From Candidatus Woesearchaeota archaeon (GTDB lineage: Archaea; Nanobdellota; Nanobdellia; Nanobdellales; Nanobdellaceae), in assembly GCA_964468425.1 (NCBI GenBank), contig CAYXSZ010000082.1, positions 1 through 12,542 of the forward strand: a DNA stretch of 12,542 nt, in the 5' to 3' direction. How positions within the stretch are numbered: position 1 is the stretch's first letter; every line of letters begins with the position of its first letter. Position numbers and translations under genes: made by a program. Shown here piece after piece: positions 4,395 through 11,082 of this stretch. The notes under the pieces are model-generated. The model was given only the letters and a program-made list of their open reading frames with translations, was not told the DNA's origin and searched no databases.

Positions 4395-4964
4395 TTATAT
4401 TTTAGGACTCAAATTCTTTTTTACTTTCTCGAAGGCATTTCGAGAGAAAGTTTCCTTATACTCTTTCATTAATTTCGTTAAATGTTCCCGATCTAGACTC
4501 AAAAGCTTTGAAACAGCTTTATCTCTTAACAAAAATTGCGCGAACTGCGTCAAATTTGATGGCTTTTTTGTTTCCTTCGCGCGTTCCCAATCCAATAAAA
4601 CAACTCTTCTTCCTGAAAGTATTACGTGCTTGTACGGTCTGTGCATCTCTTCTTTTTGAATTTTCATCGAGTCTAATAGAAAACAAATGTCCAAAACTTT
4701 GTTTATAGTATAAAGTAGTTCTTTTGTTTCTCCTTTTTTGATAATATCCTTTAAAGACTGTCCTTTTACGTATTTCATTTCTATTTCCAGATTTTTAGGA
4801 TCGAAGGAAATTAACTTAGGAACAAAAAGAAAATTTCTTAATTTTGATAAAAAGTGAACTTCCTTTTCGAAATTCTTACTTAGATTGGGTTTAAACTTCT
4901 TTAGGATTGTTCCTCTGCTTGTTAGAAAAACAAATGAATGTTTTCCTCTAGCGATTAGCTTCAT
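4395..4964 (-). CDS. small atypical protein-kinase-like protein (Bud32/RIO superfamily-like, possibly COG2112-type)
   Basis: 189 aa with a kinase-fold order of elements. These are an N-terminal loop LIARGKHSFVF, a lysine segment ILKKFK, a helix E..FLSKL, a hinge-like EMKYVKGQSL, a catalytic-loop position EEMHRPYKHVIL, and LLDWERA in place of DFG. The canonical HxDLxxxN is absent. The stop abuts the Hef ATG with 0 nt spacing (TAA|ATG). Confidence 0.5.
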   Translation of the reverse strand: MKLIARGKHSFVFLTSRGTILKKFKPNLSKNFEKEVHFLSKLRNFLFVPKLISFDPKNLEIEMKYVKGQSLKDIIKKGETKELLYTINKVLDICFLLDSMKIQKEEMHRPYKHVILSGRRVVLLDWERAKETKKPSNLTQFAQFLLRDKAVSKLLSLDREHLTKLMKEYKETFSRNAFEKVKKNLSPKI

Positions 4965-5613
4965 TTATAGGGCAAACGGCGTAGCACCTTTCTTTTTCAC
5001 AGATCGAAATGATATAGTCTATTGCATATCGGTTCCCGAGTATTTTCCCATCCGGAAGTACGCAAAAGCTATATATTCCGTTAATATAGATTGGTTTTCC
5101 TTTTTCTTGCTTACAAAGATTTTCTTCGAAATTTTTTCCCATAAAATATCCATTTTTATCTTGTATAGACGCGGGATATCCTTCCATGACATATGTCTTA
5201 TTTTTAGTGAATGCCACAACAAGGGGAACACCAAAATCCCACGAAATGTTGTGCTTCCTTAAACAAGACATCATGTTTACGGAGTCCATAGTTTTTACAA
5301 TTTTAACAGGAGTGTTTACTGTTTCAAGATAGGATAAAAGATGGTGGCAGTGAGGACACGTTGGAGAGTAAACTACGTAAATAACTGAAGCGTTTGCGTA
5401 AGACTTATTAGTGGTTGTGGATTCGTTGTAACCAATGTGACTTTGAGAGGAAATGTGGATTCCGGTCAAATTATTATTTGCATTTTGTAGAGCGCTCGCT
5501 GAAATAACGCCAGAACTTGGTAAGTTCGTTTTTTTGGAGCTGCTCGTCACATTAAGCGCAATTGGAAGAGCAAGGAATGCTAGGAGTATGGCTCCGATAA
5601 TTTCTCGCTTCAT
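4948..5613 (-). CDS. secreted or membrane-anchored thioredoxin-fold thiol:disulfide oxidoreductase (CPHC active site) with a Cys-rich C-terminal extension
   Basis: It has an N-terminal hydrophobic signal/anchor (IIGAILLAFLALPIAL) and an S/T/N-rich linker. The Trx-fold core has SPTCPHCHH and a downstream GVPLVV (cis-Pro loop position). The C-terminal ~80 aa carry 5 further Cys. The ATG overlaps the CcdA stop (ATGA). Confidence 0.7.
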   Translation of the reverse strand: MKREIIGAILLAFLALPIALNVTSSSKKTNLPSSGVISASALQNANNNLTGIHISSQSHIGYNESTTTNKSYANASVIYVVYSPTCPHCHHLLSYLETVNTPVKIVKTMDSVNMMSCLRKHNISWDFGVPLVVAFTKNKTYVMEGYPASIQDKNGYFMGKNFEENLCKQEKGKPIYINGIYSFCVLPDGKILGNRYAIDYIISICEKERCYAVCPINEANR

Positions 5614-6269
5614 ACCATAAAGAAAACAGAAAGCAATAATAACCCTGCGATTAGGTGTAGTTCTTTAATATGCTTCTCTCTCCACTCCATTATCTTCTCT
5701 GGTTTGGTTCCGAAGTAGACTAAGAGCGTGATTATAATCATTGGTAAGACGAACCAAATATTGTAATAAAGAATCCAAAGCAATCCTATCGCAAATGGAA
5801 GCTTCTTTATCAATCCAAGCATGATTACATAAGGACCAGATGAACAAGGAAGTAATAAGATAGAACAAAGCACAGCAGCTGGCAGGGCTACTAGTGGATT
5901 GTCCACGGAAGACAAAACCTTTTGAGCGATTGGTCTTAGCTTCATTGGCATTTCTATAGAAACCATTCCCGGTTTATACCTAAAGTAAGCCAGAATTTCC
6001 AGCCCGGCTAGTATTAGTAGTAATCCCTTCAAAATTATTCTGAGTATAGAGTCTATTCCCAACATATAAAGGATTTGGAGAATTCCGAGTCCGTAGAGAG
6101 TGTACATCAAATAAATGGTTGCTGAGAAAATGAGACCTCCGATCAGAACGGATTGTCGTCCCTTGGTAGCGAGCAAACTAGCTAGTAGCAAAACTTGCAC
6201 AGCAAGGGTACACGGATTAATAGAATCTACGAGAGCCAGCGAGGTTACATAGTATACATCCAGAGTCAT
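5610..6269 (-). CDS. ccdA: CcdA/DsbD-family transmembrane thiol-disulfide electron transporter
   Basis: 219 aa, a polytopic hydrophobic protein. It has the two family-typical membrane-embedded cysteines in Pro-Cys context: DSINPCTL (TM1) and LLLPCSSGPY (mid-protein). It is immediately upstream of, and overlapping, an exported CxxC protein. Confidence 0.75.
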   Translation of the reverse strand: MTLDVYYVTSLALVDSINPCTLAVQVLLLASLLATKGRQSVLIGGLIFSATIYLMYTLYGLGILQILYMLGIDSILRIILKGLLLILAGLEILAYFRYKPGMVSIEMPMKLRPIAQKVLSSVDNPLVALPAAVLCSILLLPCSSGPYVIMLGLIKKLPFAIGLLWILYYNIWFVLPMIIITLLVYFGTKPEKIMEWREKHIKELHLIAGLLLLSVFFMV

Positions 6270-8287: not shown

Positions 8288-9580
8288 ATGAATCCTTTTG
8301 TCCAGAAACTTATAGATTTTGTCGTAGGTCAGGTAAACCCTTATAAGATCCTTAAAAGAAAAGTTAAAATCAATGGAGATTTCTTGATTGTAAATAATCA
8401 GCGTATCGAGCTTTCTGGAGACATTTACGTTATCTCTGTTGGGAAAGCAGCGTGTTCTATGGGAAGAGCTGTAGAAGATTTACTAGGAGAGAAGATAAAG
8501 GAAGGTATTGCTGTAACTAAATACGGTTATGCTCAGGAGCTCAAAAAACTGAATATCGTAGAAGCTGGTCATCCTTACCCAGATGAGAATTCAATAGAAG
8601 CTGGAAAATTGGGATTAGAATTAGTTAAAAGGGCTAAATCAAATGATACTATCATATTTTTAATATCTGGAGGTGCTTCCTCCCTGTTTGAAGTTCCAGA
8701 GGAAGGCATTTCTCCCGAAGATTTGAGGAAAGCTTATACTCTTCTCGTTAACTCTGGAATGAACATCTCCGAAATAAACACAATAAGAAAACACATTTCA
8801 AAGATAAAGGGTGGAAAAATACTCAAATATACAAGAGCTAAAATTATTTCTTTAATAATTTCAGACGTTGTTGGAAACGATCTATCGACAATAGCCTCTG
8901 GGTTAACGTATAAAGACCCAACAACTTTTAAAGATGCGTACGAGCTTCTAACAGCTAAAGATCTTTGGAAAAAGCTTCCAGATTCTGTGAAAAAAGTCAT
9001 TTTAAGGGGATTGGAAGACAATTCATTAGAGACATTAAAAGAAATTCCTGAAAACGTTCACAACTTCTTGATAGCCGATAACGACAGTTTGCTACTTGAA
9101 CTAAAGAAGTTCGTAGAGAGTTTCGGAGTAAGAGCGGAAATAATCACAAGTTATGTGACGGGAGAGGCTAGAGAATTCGGAAAGTTTGTCTCTTCAATTG
9201 TAAAAGAAATTAAAACTAAGAATAGACCATTTTCTCCACCAGTAGCCTTGATCTTCGGAGGAGAAACCTATGTAACGGTTACTTCGAGAACTGGAAAGGG
9301 AGGTCCAAATCAAGAAATAATTCTCTCTATGATAAATGAATTAAAAGATTTTGAAAATGTTCTAGCCTTGGCATTGGATACGGATGGAACGGATGGTCCG
9401 ACAGACGCAGCTGGAGCGTATTTCGATGAAAATATTTTAAGATCTGCAAGAAACAAGGACATTCGCCAGTATCTAATTAAAAATAGCGCTTACGACATTT
9501 TAAAAGACATAAATGCCCTGATTTTCACTGGACCGACGTATTCTAATTTAAATTCTATATGTGTAGTAATTCTAATGTAG
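8288..9580 (+). CDS. gck: MOFRL-family glycerate 2-kinase (class II glycerate kinase / TtuD-like)
   Basis: Family motifs in order: VGKAACSMGRA, GHPYPDENS, LISGGASSL, INTIRKHISKIKGG, IISDVVGNDLSTIASG, GGETYVTV..GKGGPNQE, DTDGTDGPTDAAGA. It starts 6 nt after the eL31 stop. Confidence 0.85.
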   Translation: MNPFVQKLIDFVVGQVNPYKILKRKVKINGDFLIVNNQRIELSGDIYVISVGKAACSMGRAVEDLLGEKIKEGIAVTKYGYAQELKKLNIVEAGHPYPDENSIEAGKLGLELVKRAKSNDTIIFLISGGASSLFEVPEEGISPEDLRKAYTLLVNSGMNISEINTIRKHISKIKGGKILKYTRAKIISLIISDVVGNDLSTIASGLTYKDPTTFKDAYELLTAKDLWKKLPDSVKKVILRGLEDNSLETLKEIPENVHNFLIADNDSLLLELKKFVESFGVRAEIITSYVTGEAREFGKFVSSIVKEIKTKNRPFSPPVALIFGGETYVTVTSRTGKGGPNQEIILSMINELKDFENVLALALDTDGTDGPTDAAGAYFDENILRSARNKDIRQYLIKNSAYDILKDINALIFTGPTYSNLNSICVVILM

Positions 9581-9635
9581 CCCGGACAACTCTTCCGTGT
9601 CATCGATCAACGGAAACCCTCGTCCGGGCTATGTA
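9574..9635 (-). ncRNA. GC-rich stem-loop: candidate single-hairpin H/ACA-like sRNA (minus strand), or alternatively a 3'-end/terminator hairpin shared by the convergent genes
   Basis: The outer stem is GCCCGGAC (9580-9587) paired with GTCCGGGC (9622-9629). The internal loop is 5 x 6 nt. The inner stem is TTCCGT (9593-9598) paired with ACGGAA (9610-9615), closed by an 11-nt loop. The 50-nt core is 31/50 G+C in an AT-rich background. Read on the minus strand, ACA (complement of 9576-9578) lies 14 nt 3' of the upper stem and the loop UGAUCGAUGAC has two GA steps. Confidence 0.4.
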
Positions 9636-9654: not shown

Positions 9655-10185
9655 TTAAGCGTAAATTCCCTTGAGAAAAGAAATTATTTCTTTTTTAAGC
9701 TCGTCAGAGTGTATGAATAACTTTTTAGCAGATTCCTTTGGAGGATCTCCCGCACGAACTTTCCCCCAAGTTTTTTTGAGCCAAGAGGGTTTTATTTTGA
9801 ACACAGAACTAAGAATTTTCTCTCCCGTGGTTGTTATTTGAGGTTCTCCTGGCTCGTGGATTTCGTGTTCAGTTTTAATCTCTATTTCGAGCGAACCTTG
9901 CTGGGTTTGCGGATTCCATCCATCGACTCTGATTGTTAAGGTTAAAAACCAGTTGATTTTTAGCGTATCCTCGTCGTAAAAGTTCTGGGTAGCCTTCCAT
10001 TGAATCTCAATAAAATAAGAGCCGTCTGCAGCGATTCTATGATAATAATATACTTCGTAATAATCTTCTCCAGGAATTCCTTCCCAGTCATTGTTTTTCA
10101 AGAGATCGTGAAGAAACTCGTATAACTTTTTTAGATCAAACTTACCCTTAAACTTAACTTTAGACTTGTAGATCTGCTCAGCCAT
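9655..10185 (-). CDS. hypothetical protein, paralog B of a tandem pair (family not recognised)
   Basis: 176 aa, ATG start sharing one nt with the upstream stop (TAATG). It shares spaced motifs with the upstream ORF: VKF at residues 10-12, LYxxLxDLL, DGSxxIxIxW, I.V.G, and KVRA at 142-145. Confidence 0.7.
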   Translation of the reverse strand: MAEQIYKSKVKFKGKFDLKKLYEFLHDLLKNNDWEGIPGEDYYEVYYYHRIAADGSYFIEIQWKATQNFYDEDTLKINWFLTLTIRVDGWNPQTQQGSLEIEIKTEHEIHEPGEPQITTTGEKILSSVFKIKPSWLKKTWGKVRAGDPPKESAKKLFIHSDELKKEIISFLKGIYA

Positions 10186-10676
10186 TAGATTTTGAAGGAC
10201 GCTGTTAGATCTTTTAACATACCCAAGAATTCCTCGCCAATCGCTCTCACTTTCTTTTTGTGCTCCTTTATTTCGCCACTTACTATGTATTTCTCGTAAA
10301 GAGCTCTTAAAAATATGTTAAACGGTTTATCTCCAAAGAACTTTTCGTAATCGACTTCTAACTCTGCATTTAATTCTACAGAAAACTCGTCTACGTGGTG
10401 CATTTCCCTCCCGTTCACGTTTACGGGTTTTAATCCAGAAACTTCGATCCCGAAGTTATAAATATACTTACAATAATCTGTTACTTTCTTTTCGCACTCC
10501 CATTCGAGCTTTATGTCCCTCGACCCATCCTCCTTTACCTTTTCTTCGTGCTTCTTTTCAAGAAAATCAAATCCTTTGGCATCCCAAAAGTCTTTTATAG
10601 CTTGATAAATAGTTTCGAATTCGAGTAAACCAGAATAAACAAATTTTACACCATCCAAGATTTTGTCTTTCGGCAT
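10185..10676 (-). CDS. hypothetical protein, paralog A of a tandem pair (family not recognised)
   Basis: 163 aa, ATG start, with a TATA-like box at -21..-32. Its motifs VKF (10-12), IYxxIxDFW, DGSRDIKLEW, IEVSG and KVRA (142-145) match the downstream ORF at the same spacing. Confidence 0.7.
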   Translation of the reverse strand: MPKDKILDGVKFVYSGLLEFETIYQAIKDFWDAKGFDFLEKKHEEKVKEDGSRDIKLEWECEKKVTDYCKYIYNFGIEVSGLKPVNVNGREMHHVDEFSVELNAELEVDYEKFFGDKPFNIFLRALYEKYIVSGEIKEHKKKVRAIGEEFLGMLKDLTASFKI

Positions 10677-10710
10677 TAAATTTAAAGGAGTGTTCCTACT
10701 TAAAAGTTAA
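10677..10710. promoter_or_regulatory. 34-bp divergent promoter region with two interdigitated TATA-like boxes
   Basis: TAAATTTAAAGG (10677-10688) is at -34..-23 of the Toprim ATG. On the other strand, ACTTTTAAGTAG (complement of 10697-10708) is at -21..-32 of the paralog-A ATG. Each box abuts the other gene's start codon. Confidence 0.4.
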
Positions 10711-11082
10711 ATGAAGAAACTTCGCTTCATAAAGTACCTGCAGCTTTACTCCGAGAAAAACTTGATCGTTGTGGAGGGTAAAAAAGATAAAGAACCCCTC
10801 CAAGAACTCAATATAAAGAACGTTTATGCTATTCACGAAATTTCGAGAATAGATACTTCTTATTTTAAGGAAGTTCTCATTTTAACCGATAGAGATCGAA
10901 AGGGTAAAAAAATTTACAAATATTTGTACCATTACTTCACATCCGAGGGTTTGGTAATTAATGAAAAGCTCAGAGAGGAGTTCTTTAAGGTATTTGGAGT
11001 TGTTCGAGTAGAAGAAATTAGGAAAAAGCTGGACTTTGTGAGGAATTACTTATGGTATGAAGAGCTTACGCGAGTTTGTTGA
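10711..11082 (+). CDS. small stand-alone Toprim-domain protein (UPF0292 / RNase M5-like small primase-like family)
   Basis: 123 aa. The conserved Toprim glutamate is in IVVEGKKDKEPL and the DxD motif is in ILTDRDRKGKKI. Size and layout are typical of small archaeal Toprim proteins. Confidence 0.7.
   Translation: MKKLRFIKYLQLYSEKNLIVVEGKKDKEPLQELNIKNVYAIHEISRIDTSYFKEVLILTDRDRKGKKIYKYLYHYFTSEGLVINEKLREEFFKVFGVVRVEEIRKKLDFVRNYLWYEELTRVC

Follow-up and report, generated by a model that had tools for sequence, protein, structure and literature searches.

The HadA/HadB hot-dog dehydratase subunits form a paralogous heterodimer encoded by overlapping genes. Helix-grip proteins of the SRPBCC/Bet v 1-like kind (START, PYR/PYL, AHSA1, Ups1/PRELI, polyketide cyclases) combine, within ~160 aa, an N-terminal strand and helix, a seven-stranded antiparallel sheet and a long C-terminal helix. 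Here we compare with them a pair of small overlapping genes, A and B, from DPANN archaea, whose genomes are minimal and leave much of their retained content unannotated. The orthologs in Nanopusillus acidilobi, Nps_02880 and Nps_02885, matched to A and B by synteny, are listed as ‘Uncharacterized protein’ without an arCOG and are placed between ‘Ribonuclease M5 (contains TOPRIM domain)’ and L32E (PMC4935971, Supplementary Data 1), and those in Nst1, Nst1_305 and Nst1_304, have neither an arCOG nor a best hit in any organism (PMC3655853, supplement).

The pair was analysed in the window, by which we mean the whole 12,542-nucleotide stretch of DNA. An earlier note, made from the sequence of the window, had claimed two open reading frames (ORFs) of 163 and 176 aa, overlapping at TAATG and separated by 34 bp from a Toprim gene, and all three claims hold, with the gap running up to the Toprim ATG at 10711. 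The features are as follows.

10185–10676, minus strand: gene A, an ORF of 163 aa; type-1 (short, conservative) member
9655–10185, minus strand: gene B, an ORF of 176 aa; type-2 (long, divergent) member
10183–10187, minus strand: TAATG stop/start overlap of A and B in the window sequence, predicted translational coupling
10677–10710, unstranded: divergent intergenic region of 34 bp with two TATA-like boxes
10711–11082, plus strand: small stand-alone Toprim protein of 123 aa, RNase M5-like (arCOG01486 type), with a PF01751 match

The A/B gene pair and its surroundings in the window

The plus strand reads CATTA at 10183–10187 and the coding strand therefore TAATG, so that the stop codon of A and the start codon of B have one A in common. 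No Shine-Dalgarno-like purine run was read upstream of the B start. Gene A keeps the family motif KPFNIFLRALYEKYI, while gene B carries an aromatic loop insertion (WEGIPGEDYYEVYYY) and a second, low-confidence insertion at about residues 111–140. By Kyte-Doolittle analysis neither protein has a hydrophobic segment, the highest 19-mer scoring 0.79 in A and 0.40 in B, and both lack a signal peptide and a membrane segment, in agreement with the earlier claim. A and B are real genes: their length, start and sequence are conserved across deep divergence, their fold predictions are confident, and their overlap is conserved. Gene A has 15 orthologs at 45–99% identity, and the gene B family, recovered with a profile, has 18 members.

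The intergenic region contains two TATA-like hexamers, TTTTAA before A (−30 to −23 relative to its start) and TTTAAA before Toprim (−30 to −25 relative to its start). From their placement ~27 nt before each start we infer that they would fit back-to-back archaeal leaderless promoters; the region is AT-rich in all loci, and the spacer between Toprim and A measures 34–79 bp across loci. The Toprim protein matches PF01751 with 33.1 bits (cut-off 23.1) and aligns with the RNase M5 (TIGR00334) and PRK04017 models, below the curated NCBIfam cut-off of each (26.4 vs 110.65 and 44.8 vs 193, respectively). Its ortholog Nps_02875 is annotated as ‘Ribonuclease M5 (contains TOPRIM domain)’, arCOG01486 (PMC4935971, Supplementary Data 1). 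Further along, the Toprim gene and the gene for PCM (protein-L-isoaspartate methyltransferase) overlap by 26 nt in different frames (11057–11082).

Two other features of the window were recorded in passing. A GC-rich 60-nt hairpin (9575–9634) lies between B and a convergent glycerate-kinase gene, with an inner stem and an outer one of 13 bp that takes in the stop codon of glycerate kinase; its folding energy is −28.6 kcal/mol (z=−5.9 vs shuffles), and a U-rich stretch follows it on the plus strand. It has no Rfam or tRNA match and is absent from all fetched loci; a terminator and a small RNA are possible identities. Across the window as a whole, Rfam and tRNA scans likewise returned nothing relevant. 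At 4948–6269 two genes overlap; one product is secreted, thioredoxin-like and bears a CPHC motif (221 aa), the other is a multi-pass membrane protein (219 aa), and from their sequences they look like a disulfide-handling pair.

A family of two ancient subfamilies

Compared directly, A and B show a weak similarity that is nonetheless not random (BLASTP alignment of 89 residues with 21% identity, E=3e-4; hhalign of the A family against the B family, E=3e-4 and E=7e-5). The decisive evidence for their homology is transitive: an HMM of distant relatives, built from 51 family members with the A and B sequences left out, matches both over their full length (E=3.2e-36 for A and 1.5e-19 for B), and profile-profile comparison of A and B with these relatives gives hhalign probabilities of 98.8–99.9%. 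A and B are thus paralogs, as the earlier note had proposed. The motifs that it had listed are present (VKF at residues 10–12 in both, [IL]Yxx[IL]xD[FL][WL] and DGSxxIx[LI]xW), and the string KVRA does occur at residues 142–145 of both proteins; the two KVRA strings fall in non-equivalent alignment columns, however, because B has a ~14-residue insertion upstream, and we rejected KVRA as a shared motif and regard it as a coincidence. Only Y24, E40 and W59 (A numbering) are common to A, B and the wider family, and R124 aligns with a basic residue (K in B). These positions look structural, judging from the alignment, and no catalytic constellation is apparent among the residues conserved in A, B and the wider family. 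Polar residues invariant in A-type proteins alone (H43, E45, D50, N103 and D109) may leave room for some activity.

A search with a combined profile recovered 755 clusters (50% identity) at E<=1e-3. All family matches listed are single-domain proteins of 128–228 aa, and the family appears to consist of cytoplasmic proteins, typically of ~165–210 aa. Where source labels are present they read Nanopusillaceae, Nanoarchaeia or Woesearchaeota, plus one ‘Patescibacteria’ MAG label; the contig so labelled shares a 467-aa neighbour with the Woesearchaeota loci. By every taxonomic label but one, the family belongs to Nanoarchaeota or Woesearchaeota-type (DPANN) archaea. No N. equitans homolog appears in the 2013 BLAST table (PMC3655853) or in our profile scans, and the family is therefore not universal in Nanoarchaeota.

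None of the databases compared describes this family. Pfam gave no meaningful match for A, B or any of 60 diverse family members (0/60), NCBIfam and PHROGs none for A or B, PADLOC none for A, B or the Toprim protein, and PDB sequences none for A or B, profiles included. Together with the lack of an arCOG for the N. acidilobi and Nst1 orthologs, these searches agree with the earlier remark that no known family was recognised in the proteins. A phage or viral origin was rejected on the lack of a PHROG match for A or B and on insignificant BFVD matches, and a defence system built with a Toprim nuclease on the lack of a PADLOC match. In the N. acidilobi proteome, Nps_02880 and Nps_02885 were undetected (PMC4935971), which is weak negative evidence since the abundance ranks there extend only to ~195; a search for peptides of the A and B orthologs in the N. 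acidilobi supplements found nothing. A cryo-ET and proteomics paper (PMC11329633) concerns a different DPANN organism, Microcaldota ARM-1.

Within the family, two subfamilies can be told apart. Type 1 is short (~160–172 aa) and has the motif PFxKFLRGLYEKYII; type 2 is long (~186–228 aa), its helix 1 being followed by a W/Y-rich insertion, and many of its members have a C-terminal tail. When HMMs of the two were built without Nanopusillaceae sequences, all seven A-type proteins preferred the type-1 model (115–133 bits vs 58–69 with type 2) and all seven B-type proteins the type-2 model (27–83 bits vs 0–54 with type 1). For the window proteins the scores were 132.9 bits (type 1) vs 69.4 (type 2) for A, and 53.7 bits (type 2) vs 42.6 (type 1) for B. 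Profile comparison agrees (hhalign of A with type 1, E=4e-37; of B with type 2, E=1.4e-23), in a rough NJ tree the B clade neighbours the long subfamily, and the two types are themselves related (hhalign probability 100%, E=2e-39). A is thus a type-1 and B a type-2 protein, members of two old subfamilies, and the pair is not the product of a recent local duplication: recent tandem duplication was rejected, since HMM scores, hhalign and the NJ tree favour ancient type-1/type-2 paralogy. The earlier description of B as a downstream copy with acquired insertions does not survive this comparison, the two subfamilies being ancient and occurring also at separate loci in Woesearchaeota-type contigs. 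The extra length of B is largely a type-2 trait, not a set of newly gained insertions.

Conservation of the pair and contexts of its relatives

A GTDB-wide scan and contig look-ups yielded 27 Nanopusillaceae-type loci, not all of them distinct, since some repeat the same sequence; among the genomes represented are Nanobdella aerobiophila MJ1, Nanopusillus acidilobi 7A, Nanobsidianus stetteri and strain YN1. Wherever both ends are visible, A is followed by B with an overlapping stop and start (27/27 loci, that is, 26 plus the window), and the overlap in all related pair loci is ATGA (4 nt) or TGATG (1 nt). The coupled pair is thus kept well outside this genome, which answers the earlier question about its conservation. 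It also stays intact where both flanks have been rearranged: its neighbours are glycerate kinase and Toprim-PCM in the window, it follows PCM in L011, and a divergent nanoarchaeal lineage (L007, 5525–7100, and L008) has A, B and rpL6 in a single co-directional operon with 4-nt overlaps between successive genes. Tandem pairs of family members occur in five other lineages (L030, with a 2-bp gap; L094; L098; L126, with an 8-nt overlap; L121-123); they arose independently, and they are consistent with like subunits working together as an oligomer. In Woesearchaeota-type contigs, types 1 and 2 stand at different loci, and evidence for their co-operation is therefore confined to Nanopusillaceae.

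The Toprim gene is a looser associate. It lies divergently upstream of A and adjacent to it in 20 of 28 loci, is absent in seven (L001/2/3/19/27 and L007/8) and is fragmented in one, L011, where the stretch between PCM and A (4617–4966) holds three ORFs of 30–32 aa that resemble the window Toprim. The broken gene is either a pseudogene or the result of MAG assembly errors; A and B are intact beside it. No Toprim gene adjoins the single-copy relatives at any of ~90 loci. A gene that is missing or broken at pair loci and never found beside single-copy relatives points to lineage-specific synteny and no obligatory module. Inherited synteny and a common divergent promoter region make the Toprim gene a neighbour that the pair can dispense with, and the earlier suggestion that it may form a module with A and B is not supported. 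The link to pcm, raised as a question in the earlier note, is seen in the window and L011 only, as is the adjacency of Toprim and PCM.

The contexts of the relatives show no coherent functional theme, with at most a weak signal in recurring membrane proteins. In a Woesearchaeota-type clade of 86 loci, the type-1 gene is preceded by one for a protein with CBS and zinc-ribbon domains (43/66 loci), with a thermosome gene further upstream, and is followed by one for a conserved single-pass membrane protein of ~460 aa (30/61 loci). Type-2 genes directly follow ydjM (PF04307, membrane hydrolase) in L034-37 and L120, which represent two lineages, and one tandem family pair precedes SepF and ZPR1.

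L028, 676–2073: ~460-aa protein directly downstream of a type-1 gene
L031, 5532–6929: ~460-aa protein directly downstream of a type-1 gene
L032, 5540–6922: ~460-aa protein directly downstream of a type-1 gene
L033, 854–2224: ~460-aa protein directly downstream of a type-1 gene
L124, 6700–8103: ~460-aa protein directly downstream of a type-1 gene
L034, 5274–6615: YdjM directly upstream of a type-2 gene
L120, 319–1557: YdjM directly upstream of a type-2 gene
L001, 12117–12492: YdjM ~5 kb from the A/B pair

The ~460-aa protein carries a signal peptide and ~290 aa on the outside, crosses the membrane by one helix near residue 305, and has ~140 aa of cytoplasmic domain that are conserved and include the motif SYIVYSK; it has no Pfam match. 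In Nanopusillaceae, YdjM lies ~5 kb from the A/B pair, and SepF and ZPR1 show a similar near/far pattern (L121 vs L001); the pattern of all three may be a remnant of ancestral synteny. L034 also contains a run of five small unannotated co-directional genes (10233–12615; 145, 145, 159, 144 or 161, and 188 aa), which matched neither Pfam nor the A/B family HMM.

Predicted fold, candidate functions and comparison with known systems

AlphaFold (AF2) models of A and B (pLDDT 90 and 85.7) have a common beta-alpha-beta4-alpha3 topology of one strand, one helix, four long strands and three helices, and so contain the beta-alpha-beta4 core that had been suggested from the sequence. In the A model the strands span residues 3–18, 37–47, 53–64, 69–87 and 90–108, and the helices 20–33, 111–114, 118–130 and 133–159. 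The predicted architecture of both proteins is a two-layer alpha/beta domain with a long, twisted, five-stranded antiparallel sheet, whose hydrophobic face would be covered by one N-terminal and three C-terminal helices. The strand sequences, in which hydrophobic residues alternate with E/K, suggest the same two-layer architecture, with the outer face of the sheet charged and solvent-exposed. Foldseek searches of the PDB gave nothing below E=1e-3 for A and a single match for B, 2il5 (AHSA1-like SRPBCC, E=8.5e-4). Matches to either model have TM scores of 0.15–0.34 and rmsd values of 7–24 A, and the top 50 of both are mostly sub-threshold helix-grip (SRPBCC) proteins. Viral structures in BFVD gave no significant match.

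Our proposal, to which we give about an even chance, is that A and B are the two subunits, made in equal amounts, of a binding or scaffold protein without enzymatic activity. The two genes form one operon in Nanopusillaceae, probably transcribed as a leaderless mRNA from the TATA-like box ~27 nt upstream of A, and B would probably be translated by termination-reinitiation at TAATG, which would yield roughly equal amounts of the two proteins. The products would assemble into a hetero-oligomer, a step suggested by gene arrangement alone, namely the repeated tandem arrangement in other lineages and the strict coupling of A to B; in it, A would keep the ancestral conserved helix motif and B would be the diverged partner, the assembly acting as a non-enzymatic binding or scaffold module.

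The same arrangement would also arise if A and B acted independently and formed no complex, their overlap reflecting compaction in genomes of ~0.6 Mb. Many unrelated genes in these loci overlap by 4 nt (B/L32e and L32e/L6 of L012-L026 are examples), the overlap of Toprim with PCM can be counted on the same side, and the two types are unlinked in Woesearchaeota-type contigs. We nevertheless think independent action fairly unlikely, as the adjacency and order of A and B are invariant in 27/27 loci despite rearrangement on both sides, and tandem family pairs have been kept independently in five other lineages. The neighbours raise another possibility, that A and B are accessory subunits of the RNase M5-like Toprim protein and/or of the PriS-PriL primase, in a replication or rRNA-processing module. 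The Toprim-A-B block shares its divergent 34–79 bp promoter region in 20/28 loci and stays together in the window though both flanks have changed; the usual gene order is RpoE-primase-Toprim-A-B-L32e-L6; and A, B and rpL6 overlap in one operon in L007. Against this, A and B persist where Toprim is missing (L001/2/3/19/27, L007/8) or broken (L011), neither Toprim nor primase lies next to the single-copy relatives at any of ~90 loci, the 2013 table (PMC3655853) gives an N. equitans best hit for Toprim and none for A or B, and all the synteny comes from one family-level clade and may represent inherited gene order only, which together make an accessory role improbable. Two related ideas were dropped: a GINS-like replication factor, GINS being a known primase neighbour, for want of Pfam or Foldseek support and because its secondary-structure order is wrong, and a ribosomal protein, as the L6/L32e neighbours and the A-B-L6 operon of L007 might suggest, since A is acidic (pI 5.4; family median 6.2).

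The structural matches invite a further reading, in which A and B are a helix-grip-like (SRPBCC/START/Bet v 1-type) or Cyt-toxin-like heterodimer that binds lipids or other hydrophobic ligands and handles host-derived lipids or membranes. The top-50 matches are mostly PYL receptors, Bet v 1, CERT START, Ups1/PRELID1, Aster, polyketide cyclases and 2il5, B matches Cyt1Aa and volvatoxin A2 with probabilities of 0.96–1.0, and the size and element order of A and B are reminiscent of helix-grip and Cyt folds. Membrane proteins are often neighbours in other lineages (the 460-aa protein at +1 in 30/61 loci; YdjM upstream in L034-37 and L120), and Nanoarchaeota are not known to synthesise lipids, which we count in favour of lipid binding. 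The matches are poor, however (TM 0.15–0.34, rmsd 7–24 A, only one below E=1e-3); 60 family members gave no match to the SRPBCC or Cyt models of Pfam; the predicted structure has five long strands where the helix-grip sheet has seven; A has no Cyt toxin in its top 50; and neither protein has a signal peptide or membrane segment. Membership in the Bet v 1 family itself was rejected, the hhalign probability of the family against Bet v 1 being 0.1%. On this balance lipid binding, too, is decidedly unlikely. We hold it very improbable that the Nanopusillaceae pair is a DPANN-specific two-subunit protein, of a fold with no solved relative, that carries hydrophobic cargo (e.g. host-derived lipids) in a helix-grip-like cleft; if true, the pair would be a dedicated cytoplasmic lipid-handling factor for lipid-auxotrophic symbionts.

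The family is now delimited: it comprises 755 clusters (50% identity), and Pfam, NCBIfam and the PDB all lack it. A and B offer a clonable target of two small soluble proteins, and Nanobdella aerobiophila and Nanopusillus acidilobi are culturable hosts. Should A and B form a complex that has a new fold or binds a ligand, this would add to the understanding of how these symbionts work; failing that, A and B would be one more conserved hypothetical family, better delimited.

Set beside the described systems, the likeness to arCOG01486, PRK04017 and RNase M5-like proteins belongs to the Toprim neighbour and not to the A/B pair. The SRPBCC/Bet v 1-like proteins resemble A and B in size and in their N-terminal strand and helix, antiparallel sheet and long C-terminal helix, but they differ in having seven strands where A and B would have five very long ones and three C-terminal helices, their TM scores to A and B are 0.15–0.30 with no sequence-profile relationship, and neither A nor B reaches a superposition on the SRPBCC fold at TM ~0.5 or more. 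Cyt1Aa and volvatoxin A2 have a single alpha/beta domain with long strands under helices, and they match B with a Foldseek probability of 0.96–1.0, although with E only 2e-3 to 1e-2 and TM 0.30–0.34; Cyt toxins do not appear among the top-50 Foldseek matches of A. They are also three-layered, whereas the strand faces of A and B suggest helices on one side only, and A and B lack a secretion signal. Hot-dog thioesterases match A with a Foldseek probability of 0.13–0.20 and TM below 0.2, and A and B have no catalytic motifs. With HadA/HadB, the pair has in common adjacent coupled paralogs, one conservative and one degenerate copy, and a beta-alpha-beta4 core, and the likeness is an analogy of organisation only.
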